A DNA stretch of 32,000 nt from Sinorhizobium meliloti (GCF_017876815.1 NZ_JAGIOS010000003.1:1470001-1502000); one strand, 5' to 3'. Positions 8,652 through 25,083 are shown, counted from the first letter of the stretch. Program-made: numbers and translations. The notes: generated by a model not told the origin, from the letters alone.

Positions 8652-8668
8652 GGCGTCCTGCAGAATCT

Positions 8669-10108: not shown

Positions 10109-10413
10109 GATTGGCCCTCCTTCTCTTCGAGTGTTGCGCATGATCGCGCTTCCTGTCTTCTTCTCTTCTTCGACATACCCTGCCCCTGATGTGCACACTT
10201 CCGGAGATTTTCACTGCCGTTTGGGCATAGGGAGATGGGGCCAAGACTGTCGAGATAGGCGGATGCGCCGCCTTTCTCGTAGGTCGAGGAGGCGACGTTG
10301 CGGTCGCAGAAGGACTTCAGCACCTGGCGCACCCGGAAATGGGGAGGAAGCATGGATCGACTCGCTAGCGCAAATCGGTACGCGCAGATGTGATTTGGTG
10401 CGTGAAAACCCAT
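10105..10413 (-). CDS. small hypothetical protein (102 aa, or 82 aa from ATG 10353), translationally coupled to the ATP-grasp gene
   Basis: It fills the 322-nt gap between the decarboxylase stop and the ATP-grasp start. Third-codon-position GC is very high across FRVRQVLKSFCDRNVASSTYEKGGASAYLDSLGPISLCPNG. Its TGA overlaps the ATP-grasp ATG (ATGA). I recognise no family. Confidence 0.5.
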   Translation of the reverse strand: MGFHAPNHICAYRFALASRSMLPPHFRVRQVLKSFCDRNVASSTYEKGGASAYLDSLGPISLCPNGSENLRKCAHQGQGMSKKRRRQEARSCATLEEKEGQS

Positions 10414-10430
10414 TGTTTGAGGGAGCACAC

Positions 10431-13211
10431 TCAAGACGCGCCTCCATGCCCGGGAGACGGCTTTTGTGCGTCCAGAACTCTGGTAAGCGCTTTCTCCGTG
10501 AAAACCCGAAAACCCTGTTCCGGCCGGAAGCCGTGTATTTCGCGAACATCGAGCGCGCGCAGATATTGCAGTATCGCGGGACTTATGACCTGGCCCGGCA
10601 CGAGAATGGGCGAGCCCGGTGGGTAAGGGGTAACGAGACGCGCAGAGACCAGTTCGCGGCCCCGTGCGATGGCGCCTTCGGCTTCGATGAGGTTGAGATA
10701 CTCGCACTTTGCATTGTCATAGGACAGGTAATAGGCCGAGCGTATGTCGCCATCTCGGCTTCCCATGTTAGTAAAAGAGTCCGTCGCGCGGAACGCCGAA
10801 TGGAAGGCTGAAAAGGTTGGCAGCGGCGGCTGTTTCTGCGTCAGCGAGAGAAACTGTTGATCGTGGATGCTGCGCTCGATCATGGAGAGATCGCGCACTT
10901 TATCGTCGATGTCGCGCGCGATCTTCACCAGCACCCCGATGAGATGGGCTAGGTCGGAGCGTGTGCAGCCGATATTCACTATGAACAACACCGTGTTGGG
11001 CGAGGTCTTGTTGATCTGGATCTTGTGTTCATCCATCAGCTTGTTCTTGAATGGGTCGCCACTGAGGCCTGTCGCGCCGATTTCCAGCGTTACGCGTGTC
11101 GGATCGAGCGCGAATTCGTCCGTCCGCCAGGCCGCCTCAAAATTGCTCCAGCCGGTCTTCTCGTCGAAACAGGATTCCGCGTTCGACTGGCGATATTTCG
11201 GCGGCACGAGATCGTCGCCGCCGAGGACTCGGAAATACTTCGTCAGCAGCGGATGGCGGAACATCTGCTCGCGCAGGCTCATGGCGAGTTCCAGCGTGCG
11301 CTGCACGAGTTTATAGCCTTCCATTTCCACCTGCCGGCGGCCGACGTCGAGCGACGCAAGGATCTGGTAGTTTGGTGAGGTCGAGGTGTGCGTCATATAG
11401 GCCTCGTGGAAGGCCTCCTCGGTCTTTTCCTTGAACTCCTGATCCCAGATGTGAATCATTGACCCCTGCCGCAGTGCCGTCAGCGTCTTGTGCGTCGACT
11501 GGGTTGCATAGACCCGCACCCGCGCCTTCGACGGATCTGGAAGGAGTTGCGTGTTCAGGATCCTTTCGTCGTCCTTCCAGGCCCCGGCGTCGAATTCGGC
11601 GCTGAAGGCCTCGTAGCGGGTGGCGTAGTCAGGAGCCTGCAGCATCGCGGTAAGATTGGCGGCAGCTTTCATAGCCGTGCGCTGCCGGAGTATCGGATGC
11701 GCGTAAGCGAAGGCGAACCAGGCCTCGTCCCACACGAAGACGAGATGCGGCGCGATCGCCAGGCACTCCATCATCACGCGCTCTACGTTATAGACGATGC
11801 CATCGAAGGTGCAGTTGGTGAGCAGCAGCAGACGAACACGGTCGAGCGTGCCGGCGTGCTTGTAGGCGAGAAGGGTCCGCTTCAGGTCCCGCAAGGGCAC
11901 TCCGCCATATATGGAATAATCGTTCCGCGGATAGGGATCCAGATAGTCGACCCGCGCCCCCGCCAGCACCAGCCCGTAATGGTGTGATTTGTGGCAGTTG
12001 CGGTCGGCCAGCACCACGTCGCCTGGCCTGACAAGCGCCTGCAACACGACCTTGTTGGCGGTCGAAGTCCCGTTGGTGACAAAGAAGCTGCGCTTGGCGC
12101 CAAAGGCGCGCGCGGCATATACCTGCGCAAGCTTCAATGGGCCGGTCGGATCGAGCAGGGAATCCAGGCCGCCTGAGGTAGCGGAGGTCTCCGCCATGAA
12201 CAGGTTGATGCCATAGAACCGCGCAAGATCGTCGATCCAACTCGAATTCACGATCGACTTGCCGCGGGAGACCGGCAAGGCATGGAAGACGCTTACCGGC
12301 TGTTTGGCGTGGTTGCGCACGGCATCGAAGAAGGGCGTCTGGTAGCGCAGCGCGACGCCGCGTGTGATGGAGTAATATAGTTCGTCTTGGTGCTCATCGC
12401 GGAAGAAGACGCGCCGGAACGTTTCGCCCATGCGCGCAGCGATGTCCTCGACATTGCCGTCAGTGACGAGATAGAGGTCGAGCTCTGGCCGAAGCTGCGC
12501 AATCTGGCGGCCGAGCAGCGGGCCGCGCTCGGATTCCGGAACGGCATCGATGCCGGCGACTAGCCCGTCGAGGACCCGACGCCACGTGGCCAGATGATGG
12601 TCCTGCGAGCGGGAGGGAAAACCGTAACGGACAACCACGGCCTGGAGGTCGAAGTTGACGAGCGTCGCGATCAGAGCGTCCTCGAAGGTCGGCACGATGA
12701 CTATGTCAAAGACGAAGTCGTCATCGATGCAGCGTTTGCGCTGTACGCGCCGGCGTAGAGCCTCCTGCTCGGAGCCCGACATCTGGCCAACTATCAGCAC
12801 CTCGAAATAGTGGCGAGCCTGCCGCTGTTCGTCAGTTTCGATCTGGGAGGGCAGGTCGCCTTCGGTCTCCGATAACACGCTTTGGCGGCGATAGGTCTGC
12901 CTGGCGAGCATCTTGTGAATCCGCCGCGCGGCGAGATGGGCCTGGACCAGTTCCCGTCGTTCGACCAACCCTTTCAGTTCGGCGAAGGAACGTGCACCGG
13001 GAAAAGCCCAGTAGGTCTCTATGGGGGACAGAGTCTTGATAGCGTGGGTCACCCGCTCAAGGGTTGTAATGAAATCGGAATGGTCCGGGGAAATAGTCGA
13101 GAGCAGCCCCAGATCGTCCACCAATAATGTCCAACTGTCAGAGCGAAGCTCCGCGATGCTGCGGCAGCTATGTAGCGATATTTCGACGGTATCCGTGGTG
13201 GCGATAGTCAT
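10431..13211 (-). CDS. large Orn/Lys/Arg decarboxylase-family PLP enzyme (926 aa)
   Basis: Fold-type-I major domain with PLP lysine motif ATQSTHKTL, plus TSATSGGLDSLLDP and VTNGTSTANK blocks. A wing-like N-terminal domain is preceded by an extra segment of about 140 aa. The start at ATG 13211 forms ATGA with the nifH-derived leader ORF. The track ORF to 13442 reads through the promoter cassette and is not credible. Confidence 0.85.
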   Translation of the reverse strand: MTIATTDTVEISLHSCRSIAELRSDSWTLLVDDLGLLSTISPDHSDFITTLERVTHAIKTLSPIETYWAFPGARSFAELKGLVERRELVQAHLAARRIHKMLARQTYRRQSVLSETEGDLPSQIETDEQRQARHYFEVLIVGQMSGSEQEALRRRVQRKRCIDDDFVFDIVIVPTFEDALIATLVNFDLQAVVVRYGFPSRSQDHHLATWRRVLDGLVAGIDAVPESERGPLLGRQIAQLRPELDLYLVTDGNVEDIAARMGETFRRVFFRDEHQDELYYSITRGVALRYQTPFFDAVRNHAKQPVSVFHALPVSRGKSIVNSSWIDDLARFYGINLFMAETSATSGGLDSLLDPTGPLKLAQVYAARAFGAKRSFFVTNGTSTANKVVLQALVRPGDVVLADRNCHKSHHYGLVLAGARVDYLDPYPRNDYSIYGGVPLRDLKRTLLAYKHAGTLDRVRLLLLTNCTFDGIVYNVERVMMECLAIAPHLVFVWDEAWFAFAYAHPILRQRTAMKAAANLTAMLQAPDYATRYEAFSAEFDAGAWKDDERILNTQLLPDPSKARVRVYATQSTHKTLTALRQGSMIHIWDQEFKEKTEEAFHEAYMTHTSTSPNYQILASLDVGRRQVEMEGYKLVQRTLELAMSLREQMFRHPLLTKYFRVLGGDDLVPPKYRQSNAESCFDEKTGWSNFEAAWRTDEFALDPTRVTLEIGATGLSGDPFKNKLMDEHKIQINKTSPNTVLFIVNIGCTRSDLAHLIGVLVKIARDIDDKVRDLSMIERSIHDQQFLSLTQKQPPLPTFSAFHSAFRATDSFTNMGSRDGDIRSAYYLSYDNAKCEYLNLIEAEGAIARGRELVSARLVTPYPPGSPILVPGQVISPAILQYLRALDVREIHGFRPEQGFRVFTEKALTRVLDAQKPSPGHGGAS

Positions 13212-13354
13212 GGTCTTCCAAGCTCCCGTCGGTGGCTGAGTGCGAGATGATGCCGCGACATCGGACGCGGCTGGTTCCCTCGAAGCAATGGACACGGCAC
13301 CCGCTTGGGCTTGTGTTTCTTGCAGTGGAACGCGATCTGACGCAGAGCTGCCAT
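13208..13354 (-). CDS. nifH-derived leader ORF (48 aa): 9 nifH codons followed by unrelated sequence
   Basis: AAGGAAG SD, then ATG 13354: MAALRQIAFHCKKHKPKRVPCPLLRGNQPRPMSRHHLALSHRRELGRP*. The stop TGA (13210-13208) overlaps the decarboxylase ATG (13211-13209). Confidence 0.5.
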   Translation of the reverse strand: MAALRQIAFHCKKHKPKRVPCPLLRGNQPRPMSRHHLALSHRRELGRP

Positions 13355-13403
13355 CTTGCTTCCTTTGTTGTTTAATTATTTGGGTTGTTCGGAGGGTTGA
13401 TCG

Positions 13404-13419
13404 TGCAAAAGTCATGCCA
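13404..13419 (-). promoter_or_regulatory. sigma54 (RpoN) -24/-12 promoter, copy A
   Basis: Minus strand TGGCATGACTTTTGCA, matching TGGCAC-N5-TTGCA with correct GG/GC spacing. Confidence 0.75.
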
Positions 13420-13507
13420 GGCCGCAGGAGTGACTGAAGCAATGCTAATTGCTTTCTTTCAGATGGTTAGATCGGGAAATTGACGACACGGTCGAAGGAA
13501 CAATCGG

Positions 13508-13523
13508 TGTCGCAAAGCCGACA
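13508..13523 (-). promoter_or_regulatory. NifA upstream activator sequence, copy A
   Basis: TGTCGCAAAGCCGACA fits TGT-N10-ACA and lies about 90 nt upstream of the -24/-12 element. Confidence 0.7.
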
Positions 13524-13607
13524 AAGGTGACGAACAATGTCGTATGGGTGGTCGTCACGCGTCCGAGCATGTGGAGGCGTGGGCGCTCTTCCGAAACTTT
13601 GTTTAGC

Positions 13608-13859
13608 TCACCGAGCGTGGTGCCGTCCTCTAAGTGCTGACGGCATCGGTCGGAACGCACAAGCCCGTCGCCGCATGCGCGACATGACGTTGATGCGGCT
13701 CTGGAAGAGCACTTCGTTATCCGACGGGAAGCCAAGGCTCTCGTCTTCGACGGTGGACTCAGTTATGGTCTTCACTGGAGTCTGTACGGCGCAGGAGGAT
13801 TTGTGGAGGCCGTGGTGCTCCACGGAGCGGGGTCCATACCTGAATGCCAAGTGCGTCAT
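13608..13859 (-). CDS. small hypothetical protein (83 aa), paralogue of the body of the 20362-20664 ORF; 3' end probably decayed
   Basis: AGGGAA SD before ATG 13859 and high GC3. The core VEDESLGFPSDNEVLFQSRINVMSRMR matches IEDRSLGSPSKNEMHFHSRMKVMASMR in the copy-C ORF (16/27 identical). The tail runs into the cassette A upstream region. Confidence 0.45.
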   Translation of the reverse strand: MTHLAFRYGPRSVEHHGLHKSSCAVQTPVKTITESTVEDESLGFPSDNEVLFQSRINVMSRMRRRACAFRPMPSALRGRHHAR

Positions 13860-13887
13860 CGATTCCCTGCTATGAGAGTTTTTGGAT

Positions 13888-14109
13888 CTACAAGATGTTG
13901 CCGTCCGGTGAACCTTGGCGAACAGCGAACGTCGTCGGCTCATCGTCCGCGACACCAGCATCGTAGACGAGGCGTTCCCGTACCGAATTGTCTCGGTTAA
14001 ATGTCAGCACCCGCGATTTGATCTCCGCGATCTGATTTTGCTCAATATAAGCGGAGGAGCAAATGATGACCTCATCTCCAACCTGGCAGGTGCGCGCAGC
14101 GGCCCCCTC
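13888..14109 (-). pseudogene. aspartate 1-decarboxylase (PanD)-like C-terminal fragment fused out of frame to nifH codons
   Basis: Translation: EGAAARTCQVGDEVIICSSAYIEQNQIAEIKSRVLTFNRDN... This resembles the PanD C-terminal region (NGAAA...GD.VII.S.....E.......V.F...N). There is no N-terminal pyruvoyl-forming part and no start codon of its own. Confidence 0.5.
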
Positions 14110-14246
14110 GTAGACTTGCCGATACCCCCTTACCGTAGAACGCGATCTGACGCAGAGCTGCCATCTTGCTTCCTTTGTTGTTTAAACTAATTCGTTTGTT
14201 CGGGACAATTGAATGCGCACAGCATGCGCGCGCCACTGGGTGATCT

Positions 14247-14262
14247 TGCAAAAGTCGTGCCA
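14247..14262 (-). promoter_or_regulatory. sigma54 -24/-12 promoter, copy B
   Basis: Minus strand TGGCACGACTTTTGCA. Confidence 0.75.
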
Positions 14263-14348
14263 GGCCGCAGGAGTTACTAGAGTAATGCTAATGGCTTTCT
14301 TTCACATGGTTAGATCGGGAAGTTGGCCGCATGGTTGAAGGAAATCTG

Positions 14349-14364
14349 TGTCGGGGAGCCGACA
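14349..14364 (-). promoter_or_regulatory. NifA UAS, copy B
   Basis: TGTCGGGGAGCCGACA fits TGT-N10-ACA. Confidence 0.7.
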
Positions 14365-14936
14365 AGGGCGGCGGACAATGTCGTATGCTGTGCAGTCATC
14401 CGTTTCGACACCGGGGCTTCTTCGCCTACAGGATCGAGGTGATGGGGCGGAGAAATGCCGCGACATGAGTCAGGCGCAAATGCTGGAGGCTTTTTCGTCC
14501 GGGACGGTCGGGGTCTTTGCGTCCTACAGTGCAGCGCTCGGCCAGATTGAAAGCAGGTGGCGGGCAAATTTGCACTCAAGGCAGCGCCTTGGCCGATCAT
14601 GTCTAAAGGTGGACGTGTTCCGGCAGGCGGTCGCGTGATCATGATTTATTCGAAGGATCCAAGCAAACAGAAGGCCGAAAACGCAAAACCTGCTCGCCAC
14701 ATCCTACGAGCTGAATCCAAATCAGCGAGCCGCGCTCGACTCCGTTACGCCTGACGAAATGGCTTTCGTATCCCGGTGACAATGGATCAATCAAGGTCAG
14801 CGAGGTCATTCGTGATCAGCTTCGGCGCATTCTTATCGGCCATGAGGAGCCGGCAGCTGTTCTGGCCAACAAAAGGCTGCCGTGCAGCCGCACGTTGCCG
14901 CAAACCAACCCCTCGTCCAAATAAAATCGGAACATA

Positions 14937-14971
14937 GAAGAGGCCCTGCAGGGGGCCTCTTGCGTTTTATT
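14937..14971 (+). terminator. Rho-independent terminator-like hairpin
   Basis: GAAGAGGCCC-TGCAG-GGGCCTCTT followed by GCGTTTTATT. The upstream plus-strand coding sequence is fragmentary (frames broken), so the gene it terminates is unclear. Confidence 0.55.
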
Positions 14972-15301
14972 GTGTAGATTGTCCCGGTCGTCGATCATGT
15001 CCCAGGGAGTTCTCTAATCGCGGTTGTCAAGTTGATCGCAGAGGGTGTCACAGGTCAGGCTCATGGTTCTCTTCGAGGTCGGCACTTGGGCCGCCTCATC
15101 ATGGCGTTGGATAGGCTCAGTCGACCAATGTGGTGTTCGCGGTTACCTGCATGAGCCGGCATTCGCATTCCTGGGATCGGTCTTGACTGCGCCATCGTCC
15201 TGACCGGACGATCTCGCTAATCTCAGCTAATCATGGACATCATTGTAATCATGCCAGCCCGCTCGGCTCTTGCGATGACCAACGGAAGGGTTCGCCGGAT
15301 A

Positions 15302-15770
15302 TCACATGGCGTGGAGGATGACGGCGAGCTTTCGGGCTACCGCCACCTTAGCCTTTCGATAGCCGCCTCGCCGCGCGATGCGCAGCCTCCAGCTCTTTAA
15401 AGCGGAGAACCGTGGAATACGAGTCAGCAGCGAATTGGCTGCCTCATACAGGCTGCCTCGAAGAAAGTCGGCGCCCCGTTTCGAGACGCGCCCGGATCTC
15501 ATCGTCTCACCGGAGGCATAGATGCGAGGTGTCAGGCCAAGGTAAGCTCCGGTGCTGGACGATCGTTTGAATCGTGTCGGATCATCAATGGTCGCGGTGA
15601 AGCCGAGCGCAGTGATGGCGCAGACACCAGGGACCGACATTAGGCGTCTTACGACAGCGTTCTGCCGCGCTATCGAGCGAACCTTCGCATCGAGGAGACC
15701 CACTCGGAAGCGGGAGCTGGTGAGGGGCATGTGCCGAGATTGGATGATCTCGATCCGCGTAGTTGCGGTC
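15302..15770 (-). pseudogene. IS110-family transposase, C-terminal half only
   Basis: RRLMSVPGVCAITALGFTATIDDPTRFKRSSSTGAYLGLTPRIYASGETMRSGRVSKRGADFLRGSLYEAANSLL...KAKVAVARKLAVILHAM is the Transposase_20 domain. The N-terminal DEDD domain is absent. Confidence 0.8.
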
Positions 15771-15873
15771 CACTCGACTTTGATCCACCGACCTCTTCTT
15801 GCACTTCCGCGCCACAGCTATCGAGGTGATCCGTGACGCAAACGCTGCCACGGGTGTGCCGCCACGTTGGCTA

Positions 15874-16299
15874 CCGAAAACGGTTAATGTCGATCAGGGT
15901 ACGGAATTTGCGCCCCCGATCGCAACCTTTAGGCCTATGGACACGGGCGTGATCCTGGACTGCCACGGGTAAGCCTACGGACAGTGCCTACATCGAAGCA
16001 TTCAACAGCCGGTTCAGAGCCGAGCGCCTGAACCAGTACTGGTTCCTGCCCCCTGCGAACGCTCGCGAAAAGATGGAGCATTGACACAGAGATCACAATG
16101 AGTTTCGGACACATGGTGGATCGGCAACAAAGCGCCGATCGCACCCTCCGGGAAGCGCCGCCAGTCCGCTTCCCTGAGAAGGCCGCCCAGTCCCTTGAGC
16201 CGTCTAAACAAGCGCAACGACAAGCGCTGCTGTTGGGGTGCAAGGCCGTTTGATTGCTACTCTTCCCGATTTCCTGAGATTTCCGAGGCGCGGACCTCA
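15874..16299 (+). pseudogene. IS3-family (IS407-like) OrfB C-terminal remnant with frameshifts; possible right terminal repeat ending at 16299
   Basis: Pieces in shifting frames: LPKTVNVDQGTEF..., GKPTDSAYIEAFNSRFRAERLNQYWFLPPANAREKME, GNKAPIA. The sequence ...TTCCTGAGATTTCCGAGGCGCGGACCTCA ends in the TG/CA-type terminus expected for IS3 ends (inference). Confidence 0.65.
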
Positions 16300-16319
16300 G
16301 CCGATGAATGCCGCCAATC

Positions 16320-17306
16320 TCAGCCGTATACGCCGATTATTTCTATTTCACGCATCTCGGCCGGCGTGACGAGCGGCTCGGCCAGGAATTTCTCGGCTTC
16401 CAGCGCCGCCATGCTTCCCATGCCGGCGGCGCTGATCGCCCGACGGAAGACCGGGTCGATTACATCACCGGCCGCGAGTATCCCCGGAACGGATGTCTTC
16501 GTCGACCAGGAGCCAACCTTGATGTAGCCGGCCCGGTCCATGTCCAACTGACCGCGAAACAAGGCGGTTGCTGGATCATGACCTATGAAGAGGCCGTGCG
16601 TGGGCAGTTCCTTCGCGTCGCCGGTATTCACGTCACGAATTCGAACGCCGGTCACCGACTTCCGCGGCTCGCGCTCGCCGATAACTTCATCGATGACGTG
16701 GTTCCAAATGACGTCAACATTCGGTCTGGCCAAAAGGCGGTCCTGCAAGATCGGCTCCGCTCGAAAACGATTTCGGCGATGGACGACTGTGACCTTGGAG
16801 GCAAGGTTCGACAGATAGAGCGCTTCCTCCACGGCTGTGTTCCCGCCGCCGACAACGACCACTTCCTTGTTTCGATAGAAAAAGCCATCAGAGGTTGCGC
16901 AGGCGGAGACGCCGAATCCAGCAAATATCTTCTCTGAGGGAAGGCCAAGCCATCGGGGCTGGGCTCCCGTCGCGATGATGAGTGCGTCGGCGAGATACGT
17001 GTCGCCGGAGTGAGCTTGGAGACGGAATGGCCGCTTCCAGAGATCGACAGAGGTGATGATGTCGTACATCAACTTGGTGCCGACATTTTCTGCCTGCTGC
17101 CGCATCTGCTCCATCAGCAAGGGACCTTTGACCGGCTCAGCGAAACCTGGGAAGTTCTCGACATAAGCCATGGTGGTGAGCTGGCCGCCGGCCTGCCGGC
17201 CGGTTACGAGGAGTGGCTTCAGGTTGGCAAGGGCAGCGCAGATGGCAGCGGTATAGCCCGCCGGTCCGGCCCCGATGATCAGGACCCTGGCGTGGTGGGT
17301 GTTCAT
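16320..17306 (-). CDS. thioredoxin-reductase-like flavoprotein with CxxS (CATS) in place of the CATC redox centre
   Basis: 328 aa from ATG 17306 (AGGAGGAG SD). Motifs: FAD site GAGPAGYTAA, NADPH sites GGGNTAVEEALYL and VHRRNRFRA, and AAGDV. The active-site region reads VSACATSDGFFY, with a TCT codon where TrxB has TGT/TGC. The track ORF to 17540 is an extension. Confidence 0.85.
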   Translation of the reverse strand: MNTHHARVLIIGAGPAGYTAAICAALANLKPLLVTGRQAGGQLTTMAYVENFPGFAEPVKGPLLMEQMRQQAENVGTKLMYDIITSVDLWKRPFRLQAHSGDTYLADALIIATGAQPRWLGLPSEKIFAGFGVSACATSDGFFYRNKEVVVVGGGNTAVEEALYLSNLASKVTVVHRRNRFRAEPILQDRLLARPNVDVIWNHVIDEVIGEREPRKSVTGVRIRDVNTGDAKELPTHGLFIGHDPATALFRGQLDMDRAGYIKVGSWSTKTSVPGILAAGDVIDPVFRRAISAAGMGSMAALEAEKFLAEPLVTPAEMREIEIIGVYG

Positions 17307-17632
17307 GATGTGATCTCCTCCTACGTAACGGTCCGGTGGGTCGGCCGTGACGCGGCCTCGGGGTAGTTGGTGTAGCAAAGGCAGCTCCTTGCGCATTGTG
17401 AAGCACTCAGCAGATCGAAAGGGCTTGGGGCTTGGGGTTTGGGTTCTGCGTTGGGGCTGAGACAGCGGTTCTGAACCAATCTGGTGAGAGCAATCGTGTC
17501 GGCCGGGTTTCGCTGTGTGGTGACACAATGATGCTGCCAAGGGTGATATCGGACAGTGCCGCTGGTCAGCTTTGGAAATTGCAGTCTAATGCCGCATTGG
17601 CGCGCCCGCTTAGGCGCAACTTCAGTGGGACA

Positions 17633-18403
17633 TCAGCACTGGCGCCCGAAGGGCGTACCGAGACGGCCTTGGGCCTCCCGATCGACGAGCAGCGTCACCG
17701 TGCGATCGGGACTGCGGAACAACCTCGCACGACTGATGTTGAGGACGGTCTCAGAGGTGGTCGCTATTTGAACGGGACGGTGAGCGGCCTCGATGACCTC
17801 GACATCCAAGATCGAGTGGTCGCACAAGACAATGGGAGACCAGGCGGGAGGGCACCCGATGGCCTTGCCTGTGACGGCCATGAGCGAAGATCCGAGCGGG
17901 AGGAGCGGCCCCCCGAGCGTACGATTATAGCCGGTGCTGCCGATTGGCGTCGTCAACACGAGACCATCCCCGTTGATGTTCATCGGGTCCCCATTTCCGC
18001 GGACGGCAACGCTTAACTTGGCTTGCTGGAATACCTGCCGCTCAAGGACGATCTCGTTGATAGCGAAAAGCTCTCGGCTGCGCCCTCCCACCTGCTCGAT
18101 CTCGGCTTGCAGCACAGGCAGTTCCTCGCTGGAAGCCGCTTGCAATCGCTCCGTCAAATCATGCGTCCGTAGTGAATTGCAGAGAATTCCGGTGGAGCTG
18201 TCGGTACGCATGGCGAATACGGGCTTTGCCGGCATTGCCGGCATTGCCAGTGCCTCATGAAGCGCCTCCAATGCGGTACCGTCTCCACCGATGGCCACGA
18301 TGAATTCGGCTTCTGCCGCCGGGGTCTGGCCGTAGCGCCCCGAAAGTTCCTTGAGTGCCCCCTGAGCGCGTGGTCTCGGTGATGCCCGGAATGCGATCTT
18401 CAT
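17633..18403 (-). CDS. nadK: NAD(+) kinase
   Basis: Motifs GGDGT (IVAIGGDGTAL), NEIVLER and GDGLVLTTPIGSTGYN. 256 aa. Confidence 0.85.
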   Translation of the reverse strand: MKIAFRASPRPRAQGALKELSGRYGQTPAAEAEFIVAIGGDGTALEALHEALAMPAMPAKPVFAMRTDSSTGILCNSLRTHDLTERLQAASSEELPVLQAEIEQVGGRSRELFAINEIVLERQVFQQAKLSVAVRGNGDPMNINGDGLVLTTPIGSTGYNRTLGGPLLPLGSSLMAVTGKAIGCPPAWSPIVLCDHSILDVEVIEAAHRPVQIATTSETVLNISRARLFRSPDRTVTLLVDREAQGRLGTPFGRQC

Positions 18404-18600
18404 GGTTGAGCCTTTAATTCAAGAAGGCTGACTTCCCCATTCAAAGGGGGGTTGAGCAAAGCTGGCTGGGCGCTAAGATCTCGCAACAAGCCGCGCTTAG
18501 ACGCGACCATCCGTTGCCGCTGCTTCCCAATACGGATGAAAATATCAGCGCGAACTAAACACGCTTTTTTCAGCCACCTGATCATGCCGTTCTCACTCAT
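18400..18600 (-). CDS. small hypothetical protein (66 aa), translationally coupled to nadK
   Basis: ATG 18600 is preceded by GAGGGAGG. Its TGA overlaps the nadK ATG (ATGA at 18400-18403). GC3 is only moderate and I recognise no family. Confidence 0.4.
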   Translation of the reverse strand: MSENGMIRWLKKACLVRADIFIRIGKQRQRMVASKRGLLRDLSAQPALLNPPLNGEVSLLELKAQP

Positions 18601-18660
18601 GATTGCCTCCCTCTTTGTGGCCGTTGTAGGCGGCCACGCCATCAGCACCGTTTCGGGGCC

Positions 18661-19923
18661 TCAGCCCATGAGGAAATGCTGCGTGCCTTGCGCTTCAATG
18701 GCCTCCGCAAGCCGAGAGAGCGCGTGCACATAAGCGGCGCTGCGCAGGGTAATGCCTTTCTCCTGGGCGAGCGTCCAGACCGCGTCTCCTTCCTGCTCCA
18801 TCCTTGTCTTCAGCCGCGCATGCACCTGCTCGATCGGCCAGGAATCGCCTTGCCGGTTCTGCACCCATTCGAAATACGAAACGGTGACACCACCCGCATT
18901 TGCCAAGATGTCAGGGAGCACAACGACGTTCTTGGCGTTGAGGATTTTATCAGCTTCAAGGGTTATCGGCGCGTTGGCGAGTTCGAGGATGACGTGAGCC
19001 TTTACGCGTGCGGCATTTCCTGCGTGAACCATGTCCTCCAGGGCGGCCAAAACGAGCAGCTCGCAATTGACAGAAACAAGCTCGTCGGCAGGAAGCGTGC
19101 AGACGCCGTCTGAGCCTGCAAGGCTGGTGACGCTCCCCTGCCGCTTTGCGGAAATGAGCTTATCGACGTCGAGTCCCGAGGAGCACTGGACCCCCCCCTT
19201 CGAGTCCGTGACCGCCACGATCTTGAATCCGGCGGCTCCAAGCAGCTGCGCAATGTGCTTGCCCGCATTGCCGAAGCCCTGAATCGCCACCCTCGCGCCA
19301 GGCCGCAATCCGAGCTTTTGCGCCTGGTGTAGGAGGAGATAGTAGCCGCCGCGGGCCGTCGCGTCCTCCCGTCCGAGCGAGCCGCCGAGGGCGATGGGCT
19401 TGCCGGTGATCACCGCCGGGGTCACCTCGCCAACGATAGCGGCGTATTCGTCGGCCATCCAGGCCATAATCGTCGAATTGGTATAGACGTCCGGCGCCGG
19501 AATGTCCCGGTTCGGACCGATGACCTTGGCGAAACATTGAACATACCGGCGGGCGAGGCGCTCCTGTTCGGTCGCGGACAGATTGTGAATATCCACCTGC
19601 ACGCCGCCCTTGGCACCGCCAAGCGGCAACTTGATAACCGCGCACTTCATGGTCATCAGGAAGGCGAGCGTCTCGACCTCGTCGATAGTCACATCCGGGT
19701 GGAAGCGAATGCCGCCCTTGGTGGGGCCGAGCGTGTCGTCATAGCGGCAGCGCCAAGCGGGGTAGGACTTGCTCGCGCCGTCGTCCATGCGGATGACTAG
19801 ACGGGCTTGCGTGGTCTCGCGCGGCGATTTGAGTTTCTCGAGAACGTCCGCGGTGATGTTGAGGTACCCGGCTGCTTCGTAGAGACGTGCCCGGGCTTGG
19901 TCTAGCATAGTCTTGGGGACCAT
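18661..19923 (-). CDS. Glu/Leu/Phe/Val dehydrogenase family enzyme (glutamate dehydrogenase-like, 420 aa)
   Basis: Catalytic Lys motif KLPLGGAKGG, PTKGGIRFHP, dinucleotide fold VAIQGFGNAGKH, and C-terminal VSYFEWVQN. Confidence 0.9.
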   Translation of the reverse strand: MVPKTMLDQARARLYEAAGYLNITADVLEKLKSPRETTQARLVIRMDDGASKSYPAWRCRYDDTLGPTKGGIRFHPDVTIDEVETLAFLMTMKCAVIKLPLGGAKGGVQVDIHNLSATEQERLARRYVQCFAKVIGPNRDIPAPDVYTNSTIMAWMADEYAAIVGEVTPAVITGKPIALGGSLGREDATARGGYYLLLHQAQKLGLRPGARVAIQGFGNAGKHIAQLLGAAGFKIVAVTDSKGGVQCSSGLDVDKLISAKRQGSVTSLAGSDGVCTLPADELVSVNCELLVLAALEDMVHAGNAARVKAHVILELANAPITLEADKILNAKNVVVLPDILANAGGVTVSYFEWVQNRQGDSWPIEQVHARLKTRMEQEGDAVWTLAQEKGITLRSAAYVHALSRLAEAIEAQGTQHFLMG

Positions 19924-20258
19924 TTGATTCCGTTCCTTGTGTTCGTTGCAGCTATCGCGGGTCTGGGCGACATGAGCGGCGGTTGGCAGCTGCCGCCCGC
20001 AAGAGTCGTTTTAAAAATTTCGTCGATTTGGCGGTCGAGCCTCAGAGGCATGTTCTGGTTATCCTTCAGGGACTTGCATGAGAGTTGGAAGACGTAGTCA
20101 TTGTTTTCCCCCATGTCTGGCTGCGCTATCGTAGTTGTTAGCTGCTCGCGACGAGGCTGAGTCACTCGCGCCGCTGACGATGTCGGTTTCGACGACGGCG
20201 AGCGTTTTTGCTGACTATGTCCCAGTTTGTGGAACTCCATCTGAAGCAAACCTGACAT
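19902..20258 (-). CDS. hypothetical protein (118 aa from ATG 20258; the track gives 149 aa from 20351)
   Basis: GAAGGAGAG SD lies 6 nt before ATG 20258. Local GC is lower and GC3 only moderate. The 3' end overlaps the dehydrogenase start by 22 nt. No recognisable motif. Confidence 0.35.
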   Translation of the reverse strand: MSGLLQMEFHKLGHSQQKRSPSSKPTSSAARVTQPRREQLTTTIAQPDMGENNDYVFQLSCKSLKDNQNMPLRLDRQIDEIFKTTLAGGSCQPPLMSPRPAIAATNTRNGIKWSPRLC

Positions 20259-20361
20259 CTCGTTCTCTCCTTCATTCATCGGATCGCGGGCGGCGTTAGG
20301 TGTTTCCGATTTTGCTGCCAAGTCAGGCGGCGAGCTAAAGACAGACGCCAAGGTTTTCTTT

Positions 20362-20664
20362 TCAGTTGCTTGCTTTAGGGTTTCCGCTTGGACTTACCAC
20401 CACGGCCCTTGCCGAAATCGGTCTTGGCGTAATCGGCTTTGCCGAAACCGCCCTTGCCTTCCTTGAAGCTGCGGGCGGAACGCGGAAGCCGTCGCCGCCG
20501 CGCATGCTCGCCATGACCTTCATGCGGCTGTGGAAGTGCATCTCGTTTTTTGACGGGGAGCCGAGGCTGCGATCTTCGATGGGCGCGGTTACCGGCTGAG
20601 CCTTTCGCTTGGGCTTGCCGGTACCACCCTTGCCGTAGAACGCGATCTGACGCAGAGCTGCCAT
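20362..20664 (-). CDS. chimeric ORF: NifH residues 1-17 fused in frame to a small basic protein (100 aa as read; probable frameshift near 20465-20481)
   Basis: MAALRQIAFYGKGGTGK, then PKRKAQPVTAPIEDRSLGSPSKNEMHFHSRMKVMASMRGGDGFR. GC3 is near 100% in this frame up to about 20480, then high GC3 switches to another frame that reads SFKEGKGGFGKADYAKTDFGKGRGGKSKRKP* (stop at 20375). Confidence 0.6.
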   Translation of the reverse strand: MAALRQIAFYGKGGTGKPKRKAQPVTAPIEDRSLGSPSKNEMHFHSRMKVMASMRGGDGFRVPPAASRKARAVSAKPITPRPISARAVVVSPSGNPKASN

Positions 20665-20747
20665 CTTGCTTCCTTTGTTGTTTAAACTATTTCGGTTGTT
20701 CGGACACATGAATGCGCAACAGCATACGCGCCCAGCAGGGCTGATCG

Positions 20748-20763
20748 TGCAAAAGTCGTGCCA
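20748..20763 (-). promoter_or_regulatory. sigma54 -24/-12 promoter, copy C
   Basis: Minus strand TGGCACGACTTTTGCA. Confidence 0.75.
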
Positions 20764-20851
20764 GGACGAAGGACTGGCTGGAACGAAGCTAGTTGCTTTC
20801 TCTCAGACAGTTAGATCGGGAAATTGACGACACGGTTGAAGGAACAACCTG

Positions 20852-20867
20852 TGTCGAGGAGCCGACA
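20852..20867 (-). promoter_or_regulatory. NifA UAS, copy C
   Basis: TGTCGAGGAGCCGACA fits TGT-N10-ACA. Confidence 0.7.
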
Positions 20868-21291
20868 AAGGTGATGGACAATGTCGGATGGCTGCGGCAG
20901 TCATCCGCTCGGCGCCGGGGCTTCTTCGCTTAGGGCGCTGAAATGATGGAGCGGAGAATGCGGCCCTTGCAACGGCGCTCACTTTGAAGAGAGCAGAGCA
21001 TGTCAACTCGCCCGGCGGCTGACTGCGGGCCTCGCGGCGAGGGCGCGATGAAGGCCCCTCAAGGCGTGGGGGTTGATAGCGGTCGGCACGCCCTGGTGCA
21101 TGATCGTGTTCGTCACCGGATGGATGCTATTTGCGCAGCATCCGGCGCCTGCTTGATACAGACTACGAGGTGCATGGTATGTCTCCCAGCTGCAATCATA
21201 TGTGGCTAAGGTTTCCGTCTCTTCCAGCATCAACCGAGCCAACCACTGACGTGACCCACAAACCATTGATTTGATCGACGTATTTCCTTCT

Positions 21292-21680
21292 TTAGAGATT
21301 CCGGCGTGTTATAGTTTTGTCGTATTGCGTACAGGATCGTGTTCTTCTAACTGGCACTGCAAGGCGTAAGCGGTGAAGGCCCATCCTGACGATGTGAACC
21401 ACTAACTTCTTTACCGGAACTGTTGGAGACCTGGCCAACTTCAAGAGCGATGCGGCAATTGGTCGTGCTTTCGTTTCGCACGCCTTCTGAAGGCCGCTAC
21501 GCAGCTTGTTGACGACGGGCCTTGCAAGACTTCGCCTTCGGCTGCTCAGCGATAAGGAGCGACTTTGCCCGGCAGACGGCCGACAACGTCCGCTTCTTCC
21601 ATTTGGCCCACCGTCTCTGATTGATGTCATAGCGCTCTGAAAGCGCCCTCACGCCGGCCTCACTATTTTGCATTGCTCGG
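21292..21680 (-). pseudogene. IS481/IS3-superfamily (rve-type) transposase N-terminal remnant, multiply frameshifted
   Basis: EAGVRALSERYDINQRRWAKWKKR resembles the HTH region (..YGINPKTVAKWKKR..). Downstream pieces (LSAEEE.., ..AYALQ..) appear in other frames. Confidence 0.4.
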
Positions 21681-22019
21681 CGACTGCCTGCAGCAGCGTT
21701 CAATCGATGCGGGGTTTGGTCCCGGTAGACCGAAATGCTGACAGAGCTTGGCAGCGATCGCATAGAACGCCTCCCTAGGGCTCGTAATGCTCGCGATCTC
21801 ATGGGTCGCACCTATCCGGGAACATTCGCGGACAAGCGCATCGAGACTGCCGGTATCCACACTGACGGCCTCGATGTTTTCCGTTGCAAGATAGTCATAC
21901 TGAGCTGGATCAGCTGACAGGACAATTGGATGCAATCCAAGACTCTTGGCCGCTTGGACGTAGAGCTGACCAAGACCTCTTATACCGCCTTCAACTAGGA
22001 TGAGCACTTTCGTTGCCAT
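21663..22019 (-). pseudogene. ATP-grasp enzyme, N-terminal (pre-ATP-grasp) fragment truncated by the IS remnant
   Basis: MATKVLILVEGGIRGLGQLYVQAAKSLGLHPIVLSADPAQYDYLATENIEAVSVDTGSLDALVRECSRIGATHEIASITSPREAFYAIAAKLCQHFGLPGPNPASIERCC. This is a typical start of CPSase-L/ATP-grasp ligases, but the ORF ends after 118 aa. Confidence 0.55.
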
Positions 22020-22092
22020 TTGCTGTTAACCTCGATATTGTTTGTTTCACTGCGGTCCGAGAGCGGAGATCGGGATCAGCTGCGTTAGCCGC

Positions 22093-22375
22093 CCCCAGCT
22101 CGACAAGCGCGGCGAGTGTATTTTGGCAGGCCGTAGACTTGCCGATACCTCCTTACGTAGAACGCGATCTGACGCTGAGCTGCCATCTTGCTTCCTTTGT
22201 TGCTTAAACTAGTTCGGTTGTTCGGACACATGAAAGCGCGACAGATGCACGCCAAGGGGCGATCGTGCAAACGTCGTGCCGGACCGCAGGAGTGACCAAA
22301 ATAAAGCTTATAGCCTTCTTTCAAATCGTTAGATCTGGAAATTGACCATATGGTTGAACGAACAACTTGTTCGTT
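22093..22375 (-). repeat. nifH promoter / 5'-coding cassette, copy D (UAS lost; nifH codons 1 to about 32, frameshifted)
   Basis: ATG 22186 gives MAAQRQIAFY. After a 1-nt deletion a second frame reads GIGKSTACQNTLAALVELG (NifH has GIGKSTTSQNTLAALV.LG). Homology to the other copies stops at the position of the UAS. Confidence 0.8.
22266..22281 (-). promoter_or_regulatory. sigma54 -24/-12 element, copy D (degenerate: CGGCAC)
   Basis: Minus strand CGGCACGACGTTTGCA. GG/GC spacing is kept, but there is no TGT-N10-ACA upstream. Confidence 0.5.
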
Positions 22376-22783
22376 CCGTTCCACGGCACATTGCCTGCCG
22401 ATCAGCAGAAGATGCTGCTGAGCCCGTGCCATGCCGGTTAAGGTGAGCGCGAGAAGCTCCCGCGAACGCTCCTGGGCGCCCGAAGACGGCCAGTGTTGTT
22501 TCCGTGATGGCTTCGGCGAAAAAAGAATGGTTGGATCCCGCTTCGAAACCGAACATTCGCCTGGGAGGTGAAAGGATACGACCTGTCGGCGTCCATCTGA
22601 AAGGAGGCGGTAGACACGCACGGCTCCGGTCGAAACCTGATAGCACTTGTAGTTCAGATCACCGTGGGCATAGATCTCGCACCCCGGCTTGTAGGTGGCG
22701 ACAAGATGGGGCCGAGGAATTGCGGCTGGTCCAAGGTGTTCGGCCTCGATGGACTGTGGTTTGGCTTGTGCAGCGGCGTACAT
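22375..22783 (-). pseudogene. Crp/Fnr-family FixK/FnrN-like regulator gene, frameshifted and 3'-truncated
   Basis: Frame a: CYQVSTGAVRVYRLLSDGRRQVVSFHLPGE. Frame b: MFGFEAGSNHSFFAEAITETTLAVFGRP. Frame a again: RELLALTLTGMARAQQHLLLIGRQCAVER. The sequence then joins cassette D, and the C-terminal HTH is missing. Confidence 0.7.
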
Positions 22784-22877
22784 GGACTATCCCCCGTTTG
22801 ATGTGGGGACAGATTGGCAATTCGCGTGACTTGGAGAAATTCGGTTAGATCACTAAGCGTAACTACCTAGCTGCTTC

Positions 22878-23063
22878 AGAAACGGGGTTCTCGTCACGGG
22901 CCTGAGAATGCCTGACATGTCCGGCGAAGAGCTTCTGCGCAATCTCGACGATCACAAGATCAATATACCGTCGATCGTGATTACCGGGCACGGCGACGTG
23001 CCCATGGCGGTAGAGGCCATGAAAGCGGGGGCGGTGGATTTCATCGAAAAACCTCGCCCGTGA
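22878..23063 (+). pseudogene. fixJ: fixJ receiver-domain fragment (about 60 codons)
   Basis: RNGVLVTGLRMPDMSGEELLRNLDDHKINIPSIVITGHGDVPMAVEAMKAGAVDFIEKP is almost identical, from my recollection of the S. meliloti sequence, to FixJ residues about 48-106. Stops lie on both sides. Confidence 0.75.
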
Positions 23064-23492
23064 GTTGACGTTAAGGGCTCGCTCTTGTGGCTAAGGAGAT
23101 TGGCAAATGACTTCGGCTGCTTTGGAATTCGTGTCCGTAACAAAACTTCCTTAGAAGAAGACAGCGGTCATATCTGGCCAGCGAGACGTTCGCCGGGCAC
23201 CGAGTAAAATCTCGTCGCCGATGCCCGACGTAGCTATTGAAGAGAATATTTGACAGAAACTATGGAGACAATGTTCTAACTTTACATGGACCCACGAAAC
23301 AACGATCTCCGTTGCTAGCGCCTGGGTATCGAATTCTCTAAGCCATCCAACTCTGGTTCTCCACAGGCGACACATGGCCTCAGCGTTCAGCCGTGCCGCC
23401 CGCTCGGGTCGCAGCAATCACGGAGCAACGACGCCCGGCCGGCCGCCTGTCCTGGAGGCGATCCTCACACTCCCGCTTGAGACTGACGCCAT

Positions 23493-23591
23493 TTATTTCG
23501 GTTGGAATTCAAAACACGCAGCCCTTCGGCGGTCTCGGAGCGGCAGCTGGCGGAGATCGTGTCCGTCGAGATAGAGCGGATCAAGAGTATC
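23493..23591 (-). pseudogene. possible ATP-dependent DNA ligase (LigD-type) micro-fragment
   Basis: LDPLYLDGHDLRQLPLRDRRR resembles the FDLLYLDG.DLR.LPL..RK block of the ligase adenylation domain. Only about 25 residues are present. Confidence 0.3.
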
Positions 23592-23674
23592 CCTACGGGC
23601 AGAGCCGCCTTGTTTCATTGAGGAATTGAGGTTGTTTTCGTGAGGCTGGCGTTTCGCCACGTTGCTAACCACGA

Positions 23675-23709
23675 GGGGGTAGGGGCAGGATACGTGTAAA
23701 AACCGGTCA
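23675..23709. repeat. Tn3-family terminal inverted repeat (left)
   Basis: GGGGGTAGGGGCAGGATACGTGTAAAAACCGGTCA. Confidence 0.85.
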
Positions 23710-23721
23710 TAGTGGCTCGGT

Positions 23722-25083
23722 CTACCGTCTGAGGTCTTCGATGCTGAGTTCTTTCCAGAGCCATAGAAAATCATAGGTTGCCATGGGGCCTTGCGGGTTT
23801 GGTCCGGCCGAGGACCGCAGTTCGAGATATTTGAGCCAGTCGGCAACTTTCAAGCGACCGTCTTTGGTGCGGGCTGCGGCGCGTGGGGAGATATCGCCGA
23901 GCATGGCGACGGGCTGGTCCAATGTGGCGCGATATTGCTTGTCGAACATGGCGTGGACGAGTGGGGTTGCGACTTCGGGCGGGATATCGTCTGCCGATGG
24001 CCTTCTGCCCTGATGCGCGGCCTTCAACTGTTCGATGGTCTGGATAGCGGAGAGAGGCGTGCGGACCATTTTTCCGAGGATGTTTTGCACGAGCTCGGCG
24101 CCCCTTTGGGCTCGCTCGGCAGAATTGACCATGAGGACGAGAAAACGTCCCTTGATTTCGAGGTTGCCGAGGACAGGCGTGCCGTCTTCCAATGTGACAC
24201 CGGCGACAAGCGCATTCGGGTGTTCGGGCCTGGCTGGGCCCATGGCCGGCGGTCGGCCGAGCCAGTTCCAGAATTGCGGATTTTCCTGACGCAGGTCGTC
24301 CAATCCGGCAAAGCGGTCGGCGATGTCTTTCTCAGTGATGCCGACTTCGAGGGGGAAACGCACCTCATGAAACACGATGTTGTCGCCATCGCTGTTGCAG
24401 ATGAACGGCTGAACCTCGCCGAGCACCCTGGGCAAGGTATCAAACAGCCAGGCATGAGTGAACAGCGGAGCTGCCGGGCGCAACGTGTCGTTGTCAAGGA
24501 TCAGCTTTTTGCGGGATCGCTTCTTGCCGGACATTTCCCTGAGCCCTTCGAGAAGGGCTTCGGACGCCTCCGGCGAATAGGGCAGAATACCACCGGTTAT
24601 GATGTTCGTGCCACCGACCTCCACGATGCGGGCGGCGATCTTTTCCCACTGCCGCAGGGTCTGGGTGGCGGTTCCCTCGCTGACCGTCACGGGGTCGCCG
24701 CCCCGCAAAAGGTCGCGCGCCAGGAAGGATTTGCCGGGCACGATCTCACAAACCTCGTAAAGGCTGATGACGGAGGTGCTGATCGCCTTCAAATAAGTCT
24801 TGCTACGTGCGGTTTCCTTGAATCCCCGGCTCTTGAGAAAGATATCGACGAAGGTCCGGCCGTCTGGTTCGAAGACCTGGGTGAGGAAATCCTCGAAGGC
24901 GCATCCCCAAAGGGTCATGGCCCAATGGTCGCCGAGAACCTCGCCAATCTCCTCGTGATCGAGGCCGAATTCGTCCATGACGGGCCAGAAGTGGTCGCCC
25001 ATCACCTCCTCGAACTGAAGCGCCCAGTCGTCACGGCCGAGGAATTTGACAAGTGCGCTCAGATTGAAGCCGTTTGCGTTCAT
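23722..25083 (-). CDS. hypothetical protein (453 aa), transposon passenger co-transcribed with tnpR
   Basis: ATG 25083 forms ATGA with the tnpR stop. The C-terminal LGDISPRAAARTKDGRLKVADWLKYLE resembles the Xre/MbcA/ParS (DUF2384-like) LGG.SP......G...V...L...E module. The rest is unrecognised. Confidence 0.7.
   Translation of the reverse strand: MNANGFNLSALVKFLGRDDWALQFEEVMGDHFWPVMDEFGLDHEEIGEVLGDHWAMTLWGCAFEDFLTQVFEPDGRTFVDIFLKSRGFKETARSKTYLKAISTSVISLYEVCEIVPGKSFLARDLLRGGDPVTVSEGTATQTLRQWEKIAARIVEVGGTNIITGGILPYSPEASEALLEGLREMSGKKRSRKKLILDNDTLRPAAPLFTHAWLFDTLPRVLGEVQPFICNSDGDNIVFHEVRFPLEVGITEKDIADRFAGLDDLRQENPQFWNWLGRPPAMGPARPEHPNALVAGVTLEDGTPVLGNLEIKGRFLVLMVNSAERAQRGAELVQNILGKMVRTPLSAIQTIEQLKAAHQGRRPSADDIPPEVATPLVHAMFDKQYRATLDQPVAMLGDISPRAAARTKDGRLKVADWLKYLELRSSAGPNPQGPMATYDFLWLWKELSIEDLRR

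Follow-up and report, generated by a model that had tools for sequence, protein, structure and literature searches.

A nifH-type promoter cassette precedes glutamate dehydrogenase, NAD kinase-like and thioredoxin reductase-derived genes in a putative symbiosis-specific operon of Sinorhizobium meliloti RU11/001

The stretch of DNA analysed here, referred to as the window, comprises 32,000 nucleotides and is identical (100%) to a part of pSymA of Sinorhizobium meliloti RU11/001. On its minus strand, it carries a copy of the nifH promoter, designated cassette C, followed by three co-directional genes for a glutamate dehydrogenase (GDH; gdh), a NAD kinase paralogue (nadK') and a flavoprotein derived from thioredoxin reductase (trxR'). 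Comparison with related strains indicates that two further genes, asd and ask, originally stood between the promoter and gdh and that they persist, again behind a nifH-type promoter, at a second locus of the same plasmid. We favour, with somewhat better than even confidence, the view that the locus is a NifA-driven, symbiosis-specific accessory operon for nitrogen capture and NADPH supply, which feeds chemistry of the aspartate/lysine branch. It would probably allow bacteroids to keep some of the fixed nitrogen for their own amino-acid chemistry. The features of the locus are, in window coordinates:

20852-20867, minus strand: upstream activator sequence (UAS) for NifA, TGTCGGCTCCTCGACA, of the TGT-N10-ACA type, which aligns with the UAS of the true nifH gene
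20748-20763, minus strand: sigma-54 -24/-12 element TGGCACGACTTTTGCA, the same as the element of the plasmid's true nifH promoter
20614-20747, minus strand: nifH-derived leader, Shine-Dalgarno sequence and the first approximately 17 codons (MAALRQIAFYGKGGTGK), aligned to true nifH and to cassettes A, B and D
20362-20664, minus strand: chimeric small open reading frame (ORF) of 100 amino acids, counted from the nifH-homologous ATG at 20664
19924-20361, minus strand: non-coding spacer with the deletion junction 20179/20180
18661-19923, minus strand: gdh, intact gene for a hexameric-type GDH of 420 amino acids
18404-18660, minus strand: gdh-nadK spacer, which holds a 66/82-amino-acid ORF and a weak hairpin (18565-18547)
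17633-18403, minus strand: nadK', fast-evolving paralogue of the short alphaproteobacterial-type NAD kinase, 256 amino acids
17307-17632, minus strand: nadK-trxR' spacer of 326 nt, which ends in a strong AGGAGG ribosome-binding site
16320-17306, minus strand: trxR', trxB-derived flavoprotein of 328 amino acids without the redox-active disulfide
16214-16230, minus strand: weak terminator-like hairpin approximately 90 nt past the trxR' stop codon, a possible operon end and a candidate only
15800-16299, plus strand: remnant of an IS3-family transposase (OrfB), seen by six-frame translation, with VDQGTEF...GKPTDSAYIEAFNSRFRAERLN motifs, frameshifted

Cassette C (20867-20614, minus strand) shares 85% identity over 295 nt with the promoter region of the plasmid's true nifH gene, a likeness that is far beyond chance. 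The -24 GG and -12 GC are present with canonical spacing (TGGCAC-N5-TTGC), giving a perfect element, and the geometry is close to that of the true promoter, with 104 nt versus 103 nt between the UAS and the -24 position and 99 nt versus 96 nt between the -24 position and the ATG. The alignment shows that the nifH homology passes through the leader into the first 17 codons, continues through MAALRQIAFYGKGG(T)GK and then breaks into unrelated sequence. An earlier note, which had been made from the window alone, described both a nifH-type NifA/sigma-54 cassette ahead of co-directional gdh, nadK-like and trxR-like genes and a chimeric small ORF, and both are present as sequence features. The genes lie where that note had placed them; however, the range of 16320-20763 that it gave for the operon has its upper limit on the -24 element, and the UAS falls outside. 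Protein-family profile searches with the chimeric ORF gave no match, and its C-terminal part differs from that of strain RCAM1750 by indels of 41 nt and 46 nt. The ORF is part of the promoter cassette, and its status as a protein-coding gene is uncertain.

The gene at 19923-18661, annotated in the earlier note as a Glu/Leu/Phe/Val dehydrogenase, is a member of the ELFV family of GDHs and matches both Pfam domains, ELFV_dehydrog_N and ELFV_dehydrog (E values of 3e-67 and 3e-48). The closest GDHs of solved structure are GudB/RocG of Bacillus subtilis and the GDHs of Pyrococcus/Thermotoga. The motifs GPTKGGIRF, GGAKGG and NAGGVTVSYFEWVQN are kept and align with those of GudB, including the catalytic lysine and the glutamate-binding lysine and serine residues. 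The NCBIfam model GdhA_Arch was matched with 435 bits, below its cut-off of 750; the library holds no bacterial equivalog model for this clade. Outside rhizobial plasmids, the nearest relatives of gdh are found on genome contigs of Microvirga (75-77% identity) and Methylobacterium. A 95% identical gdh without a nifH cassette is carried by pEmeLPU88b, a mobilizable S. meliloti plasmid of 36 kb (11764-30326), where its neighbours encode two aminotransferases, an acetolactate-synthase-like enzyme, FabG, succinate-semialdehyde dehydrogenase, DgcN, two ATP-grasp ligases, an MFS transporter and a GntR regulator. This gene set indicates that the same enzyme families travel on a small mobilizable plasmid.

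A NAD kinase had been proposed at 18403-17633, and a NAD-kinase-like gene is indeed found there. Its product retains the motifs IGGDGT (GGDG), AINEIV (NE) and TPIGSTGYN (the Gly-rich TPxGSTxY motif). It scores 172 bits with NF003406, below the cut-off of 211; of the two Pfam domains, NAD_kinase_C exceeds its cut-off (25.6 > 23.7), whereas NAD_kinase_N stays below (18.1 < 25.5). Many diverged nadK' alleles exist within the species. The nearest relatives, from S. fredii and Ensifer adhaerens, lie in stress loci of the Usp, PNPOx, pncB or Fnr type, and none of them stands beside gdh or trxB. Homology to the plasmid-borne nadK paralogue of S. fredii extends 122 nt upstream of the nadK' start codon; thus, a part of the gdh-nadK spacer apparently arrived together with nadK.

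The third gene, which had been taken for a thioredoxin-reductase-like gene at 17306-16320, is trxB-derived as proposed, but lacks the normal active-site disulfide. Like low-molecular-weight TrxB, its product keeps the FAD- and NADPH-binding motifs (GxGxxG, GGGNxAxEEA and HRRxxxR) and passes TIGR01292 (366 bits, cut-off 343); its best match in the PDB is the Brucella thioredoxin reductase 4jnq (410 bits over residues 2-312), and the gene shares approximately 85% nucleotide identity with the canonical trxB on pNGR234b of strain NGR234, whose product has a CATC active site. Unlike TrxB, however, its active site reads CATS (six strains) or CASS (M270) where CATC is usual, and all seven unbroken ORFs share two further changes, a deletion of two amino acids within a conserved strand (GLF(VA)IGH) and an additional Cys-to-Ser exchange (GMGC to GMGS). 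In an eighth strain, ABS7, trxR' is frameshifted. Residue for residue, the active site equals that of the engineered C138S mutant of the Escherichia coli enzyme. A decayed second trxB in RU11/001 still encodes CATC and the VA residues, which indicates that the changes arose within the operon lineage. As the second active-site cysteine has been lost, thioredoxin reductase is not the probable activity of TrxR'; a classical dithiol role is likely to be impossible. The gene trxR' is under selection, and its product most likely acts as some other NADPH-dependent flavoprotein.

The operon was compared among eight strains, namely RU11/001, RCAM1750, KH35c, BIM B-442D, USDA1157, ABS7, M270 and S. kummerowiae. 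In the other strains of the S. meliloti group (seven compared), the same cassette heads five genes in the order asd-ask-gdh-nadK-trxR', and this form is intact in RCAM1750, KH35c, S. kummerowiae, BIM B-442D and USDA1157. Its ask gene encodes a short aspartate kinase of 360 amino acids, which is annotated as 'uridylate kinase' and gave no match to the Pfam ACT domain at E<=0.01. Relative to the five-gene form, exactly 2,201 bp are missing from the window, corresponding to the whole of asd and ask (12158-14358 of the comparison locus), and the deletion junction at 20179/20180 is marked by a 2-bp microhomology. Three diverged lineages, including the second copy in RU11/001, carry asd-ask at the identical junction, which argues that the deletion is the derived state and rules out that asd-ask was inserted elsewhere rather than deleted here. 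The closest allele, that of KH35c, still contains asd and ask at a synonymous divergence (dS) in gdh of 0.074, so the deletion is recent. Cassette-asd-ask-gdh-nadK-trxR' can thus be regarded as the ancestral and commonest form, which has been trimmed at its 5' end in RU11/001 and in strain SM11, whose plasmid pSmeSM11c is 99.99% identical to window positions 13001-23500. After the deletion, gdh lies approximately 0.8 kb from the promoter.

These comparisons also change the outline of the operon that had been drawn from the window alone. The 'redox/nicotinamide module' of the earlier note consists of three real genes; however, it is not a self-contained unit, but the distal three genes of a five-gene operon. 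Two small hypothetical ORFs of 118-149 and 66 amino acids, which had been counted as operon members, were rejected. The 149-amino-acid ORF (19902-20351) spans the deletion junction, fuses two intergenic stretches and has no family match. The 66/82-amino-acid ORF (18400-18648), which overlaps nadK by ATGA, is broken by indels in four of the seven other strains and is not kept as an ORF in S. kummerowiae, BIM B-442D, USDA1157, ABS7 and M270.

The two genes that are missing from the window are present elsewhere on the plasmid. Approximately 285 kb away, RU11/001 and SM11 carry a second, paralogous locus (pSymA of RU11/001, 710938-731136), in which a nifH cassette with UAS and perfect -24/-12 element precedes two intact genes, in coordinates of that locus:

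10132-11172: asd, 346 amino acids
9038-10129: ask, 363 amino acids

The remaining genes of the second locus have decayed: gdh is cut to 171 amino acids, nadK is deleted and trxB is frameshifted. The two copies have therefore decayed in a complementary manner. Each of the five genes is still present once in intact form, with a nifH-type promoter ahead of it, and this pattern argues that the whole set is being retained. A further cassette of the second locus (plus strand, -24/-12 at 12758) is followed by genes for an ATP-grasp protein of the L-amino-acid-ligase type (13011-14240) and a KamA-like aminomutase (14230-15405), the latter with a TIGR03822 score of 556 bits. The asd-ask segment of 2.2 kb was found in 31 Sinorhizobium plasmid records, compared with 19 for gdh-nadK; the records include accessory plasmids of 230-370 kb and S. 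numidicum (80% identity, beside a gene for a cobalamin-dependent protein). Judged by this distribution, asd-ask behaves as its own mobile module with a wider spread than gdh-nadK. In M270, asd-ask-gdh-nadK-trxR' forms a tandem with the true nif genes, immediately ahead of the nifH promoter and nifHDK (pSymA 858241-866571).

Pairwise ratios of nonsynonymous to synonymous divergence (dN/dS) are approximately 0.24 for gdh, 0.29 for trxR', 0.28 for asd and 0.33 for ask, with a range of 0.22-0.38 at dS values of up to 0.2, which indicates purifying selection on these four genes. At its 3' end, the operon is complete. The earlier note had suggested that further genes were lost there; however, trxR' is the last operon gene in all eight strains, and such a loss is not supported. 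In ABS7, BIM B-442D and USDA1157, homology ends 45 bp past the stop codon, where the next nifH cassette starts, which heads two ATP-grasp genes with a GNAT gene between them; in M270, trxR' is succeeded by nifHDK with their true nifH promoter; and in RU11/001, RCAM1750 and S. kummerowiae, trxR' is followed by the IS3-family OrfB remnant. As the note had stated, this remnant adjoins the operon in the window, at about 15800-16250 on the plus strand. Outside S. meliloti, gdh, nadK and trxB were not found co-localised; their paralogues lie in unrelated loci, which supports a mosaic assembly. The operon is thus best described as a copy of the nifH cassette joined to metabolic genes from different places.

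A similar arrangement occurs in Rhizobium, adjacent to fixABCX-nifA in both R. ruizarguesonis and R. leguminosarum bv. viciae UPM791. Its regulatory part consists of a UAS (TGTCAGATCAGCGACA), a -24/-12 element of the Rhizobium type (TTGGCACGAATCTTGA) and approximately 30 nifH codons. The first gene behind it encodes a GDH of 73% identity, and three more encode, in this order, a hypothetical protein, an ATP-grasp protein and a KamA-family aminomutase. Proteomics of UPM791 detected RLV_1887, a 'putative glutamate dehydrogenase' encoded on pRlvC, in pea and lentil bacteroids (PMC7950203), which means that a gdh homologue under the same regulatory design is made in bacteroids. The lysine 2,3-aminomutase RLV_1884 was abundant in bacteroids and undetected in free-living cells (PMC7950203). 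R. leguminosarum bv. trifolii 23B encodes a 64% identical GDH behind two NifA-type promoters. Rhizobium symbiotic plasmids couple GDH to a nifH-type promoter independently.

The gene content fits the bacteroid role in ammonium or amino-acid handling and NADP(H) supply that had been suggested in the earlier note, whose view that this gene set lies outside the standard nif/fix clusters is also supported. In the model preferred here, NifA and sigma-54 would fire the cassette in nitrogen-fixing bacteroids, presumably also in RU11/001, and GDH would take up part of the nitrogenase-derived ammonium as glutamate. The extra NAD kinase would enlarge the NADP(H) pool used by GDH and Asd, and the pathway-specific Ask/Asd pair would convert aspartate to aspartate semialdehyde. 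The latter could then serve as input for modules under neighbouring nifH cassettes, whose bacteroid product would derive from an amino acid, probably of the lysine branch; the candidates for these downstream modules are MosA, a dihydrodipicolinate synthase (DHDPS), the L-amino-acid ligase of the ATP-grasp type, the KamA-like aminomutase and the GNAT acetyltransferase. Ask, Asd and DHDPS catalyse the first three steps toward lysine, and KamA-like enzymes act on lysine-type substrates. Other nifH cassettes near the operon drive genes for an ATP-grasp ligase that is 60% identical to the one of Rhizobium, MosA, DgcN and PdxY.

Several observations weigh against this model. TrxR' lacks one catalytic cysteine, nadK' is almost neutral (dN/dS 0.5-0.85), and the spacers of 439, 257 and 326 nt are long for an operon. 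The unit also seems to be dispensable, since both gdh and trxR' are frameshifted in ABS7, and M270 has a frameshifted gdh and a stop codon in nadK. Only approximately 12 full-length records were found among approximately 60 symbiotic plasmids of the S. meliloti group, and the operon was not found in strain 1021. Moreover, the closest solved GDHs, GudB/RocG, are catabolic and NAD-dependent, so an assimilatory direction can only be presumed. This relationship, together with the catabolic appearance of the pEmeLPU88b setting, in which the 95% identical gdh has no nifH cassette, would fit a catabolic or redox-balancing function: GDH would convert glutamate to 2-oxoglutarate and ammonium, so that glutamate from the plant is burnt or transaminases are resupplied with 2-oxoglutarate, the balance of pyridine nucleotides would be adjusted through NAD kinase and TrxR', and nitrogen would be released rather than retained. 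We consider this function unlikely. Most strains pair gdh with the biosynthetic genes asd and ask, whose products consume NADPH and ATP, and with a NAD kinase; the partners of the Rhizobium gene, an ATP-grasp ligase and an aminomutase, are likewise biosynthetic, and similarity to GudB fixes neither the direction of the reaction nor the coenzyme. It is distinctly unlikely that the locus is a decaying relic, in other words, debris of repeated recombination between nifH cassettes, which is perhaps transcribed, but has no selected function in RU11/001. Such decay would account for the deletion of asd-ask, the changes in trxR' and nadK' and the disrupted genes of ABS7 and M270; furthermore, cassette D of the window lacks a UAS and drives a fragment of 118 amino acids, and cassette B aims into debris of insertion sequences (IS). 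However, all three ORFs are intact in RU11/001 and SM11, and at dS values of up to 0.2, drift would have closed an ORF of 1 kb, whereas gdh and trxR' show dN/dS ratios of approximately 0.25-0.3. The two plasmid copies are exactly complementary, with all five genes retained. Moreover, the change to CATS is shared by all seven strains whose trxR' ORF is unbroken, even though one base substitution would be enough to undo it.

The length of the spacers also raises the question of whether the genes form one transcription unit. The spacers resemble flanks that were carried in with each recruited gene: as with the 122 nt in front of nadK', a stretch of 58 nt in front of trxR' shares homology with the region preceding a paralogue in another Sinorhizobium replicon. 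The genes could thus have kept promoters of their own and be expressed independently of the cassette, for instance under stress or low oxygen, in line with the Fnr- and Usp-type loci of the nadK paralogues. This we regard as very unlikely for the three genes together; trxR' alone may have a promoter of its own, as the earlier note had suggested from the gap of 326 nt. Scans of the gaps for sigma-70-like promoters found none and no enrichment over shuffled sequence, no FixK box (TTGA-N6-TCAA) was found near the genes, and an Rfam search of the long spacers for riboswitches and small RNAs gave no match at E<=1. There is no convincing internal terminator either; the only candidate between genes is the weak hairpin at 18565-18547, and terminator-like sites are no commoner than in shuffled sequence. 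The nadK-trxR' spacer is 84-96% conserved among strains, with indels. All genes are co-directional, each is preceded by a plausible ribosome-binding site, gene order and cassette are conserved across diverged alleles, and Rhizobium ties GDH to a nifH-type promoter independently. The simplest reading is that gdh, nadK' and trxR' would be co-transcribed from cassette C.

According to the textbook view, bacteroids shut off ammonium assimilation and give the fixed nitrogen to the plant. The locus described here puts GDH behind the strongest symbiotic promoter, and most carriers add an aspartokinase/Asd pair and an extra NAD kinase. If GDH is assimilatory, the operon would be a natural, polymorphic genetic handle on the share of fixed nitrogen that the bacterium keeps, which would be directly relevant to differences in partner quality and to the debate on 'cheating'. 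It also illustrates how a portable promoter cassette can build symbiosis-specific operons from recruited paralogues, with duplicates that have decayed in a complementary manner on one plasmid. A more far-reaching idea is that the accessory nifH cassettes of pSymA jointly encode one bacteroid-only pathway, in which GDH, Ask-Asd-MosA and the aminomutase/ligase/GNAT enzymes would make a beta-lysine-type dipeptide or acetylated compound; we put this forward as a doubtful proposal. If it were true, the product would be a new rhizopine-like private metabolite or a bacteroid osmolyte, some natural strains would deliberately assimilate part of their own fixed nitrogen, and the orphan NifA-regulated enzyme MosA would gain a role.

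The window belongs to an accessory, IS-rich part of pSymA, which approximately 390 kb separate from the plasmid's own nifHDK. It contains four nifH promoter cassettes (A-D), all directed toward the minus strand, of which cassette C is the third; roughly ten are present on the whole plasmid. The first of them is:

13523 (UAS) and 13419 (TGGCATGACTTTTGCA, one mismatch), minus strand: cassette A

Cassette A is followed by a gene for an Orn/Lys/Arg-decarboxylase-like protein of 1003 amino acids (10431-13442, minus strand), a 509-amino-acid ORF without family match (8669-10198) and an AAT-family gene (acyl-CoA:6-APA acyltransferase; 7641-8699), and, past an IS with a DDE transposase (5887-6963, plus strand), by an Opp-type ABC transporter (499-5548). 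The region 499-13550 on the minus strand may represent a further NifA-driven accessory operon, again with lysine/ornithine-type chemistry. Cassette B (14134-14393, minus strand) has a complete UAS and a perfect -24/-12 element, and aims into IS110/IS3 transposase debris (14990-16299); it is an orphan symbiotic promoter. Cassette D, in the region made up of 21663-22783 (minus strand) and 22908-23063 (plus strand), has CGGCAC at -24, and its only cargo is the N-terminal fragment of an ATP-grasp ligase mentioned above. Directly upstream of it lie a fragment of a cyclic nucleotide monophosphate-binding (FixK/Crp-like) protein and a FixJ-like receiver fragment, which suggest recombination through a fixLJ/fixK region. 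A Tn3-family transposon occupies positions 23677-28851, with inverted repeats of 40 nt at its ends that are 90% complementary, and encodes a resolvase (25080-25868), a Tn3 transposase (25726-28821) and a 453-amino-acid ORF without family match (23722-25083).

The closest architectural precedent is the rhizopine mos locus of S. meliloti L5-30, whose non-nif genes likewise follow a duplicated nifH promoter and 5' part of nifH. Murphy et al. (1993, J Bacteriol 175:5193) reportedly found the 5' end of nifH in the mos locus fused as a small chimeric ORF1 and bacteroid-only expression. In contrast to the mos locus, the cargo here is asd, ask, gdh, nadK and trxR' rather than mosABC(DEF), without inositol/aminotransferase chemistry, and cassette C has three further copies beside it within the window and belongs to a set of roughly ten on the plasmid. 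A neighbouring cassette of related strains heads mosA, whose product is nearly identical to the L5-30 DHDPS of solved structure, 2vc6 (627 bits over all 291 residues). Rhizopine synthesis is controlled by NifA and is thus a precedent for a NifA-controlled bacteroid product (PMC6668481), although a role of MosA in rhizopine synthesis has been doubted (PMC6668481). The operon was not described in the searchable literature, including the searchable supplements of the 2025 PNAS paper on pSymA clusters. The architecture belongs to the known mos-type class of nifH-promoter mosaics, and its cargo and the complementary two-locus arrangement appear to be undescribed.

With regard to the cargo, pathway-specific aspartokinase/Asd pairs are known from secondary-metabolite clusters, such as Ask_Ect for ectoine and ask-asd in cephamycin producers. 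The pair described here is similar in that Asd is accompanied by a second, short aspartokinase of 360 amino acids, under joint regulation with a specialised pathway; it differs in its predicted NifA/sigma-54 control in symbiosis, and feedback insensitivity is only inferred. For the GDH operon of UPM791 (RLV_1887-1884 on pRlvC), the published proteomics did not analyse its function (PMC7950203). This operon and the one of R. ruizarguesonis share with the S. meliloti locus the nifH-type promoter with a 5' nifH fragment and the related GDH, and their ATP-grasp protein shares 60% identity with its counterpart downstream of the adjacent S. meliloti cassette; however, they lack asd, ask, nadK and trxR', and their promoter is a variant with TTGA at -12. 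GDH has also been placed under such control on purpose: in Rhizobium etli, a gdhA construct made NifA-dependent by Mendoza et al. (1998, MPMI 11:83) is said to have tilted nitrogen partitioning in favour of the bacteroid, and it reportedly carried the NADP-GDH of E. coli. The engineered enzyme belongs to an unrelated subclass, whereas the gdh described here is natural, polymorphic and linked to ask, asd and nadK; with GDH under a nifH-type promoter in both cases, the locus would be the natural counterpart of that construct.

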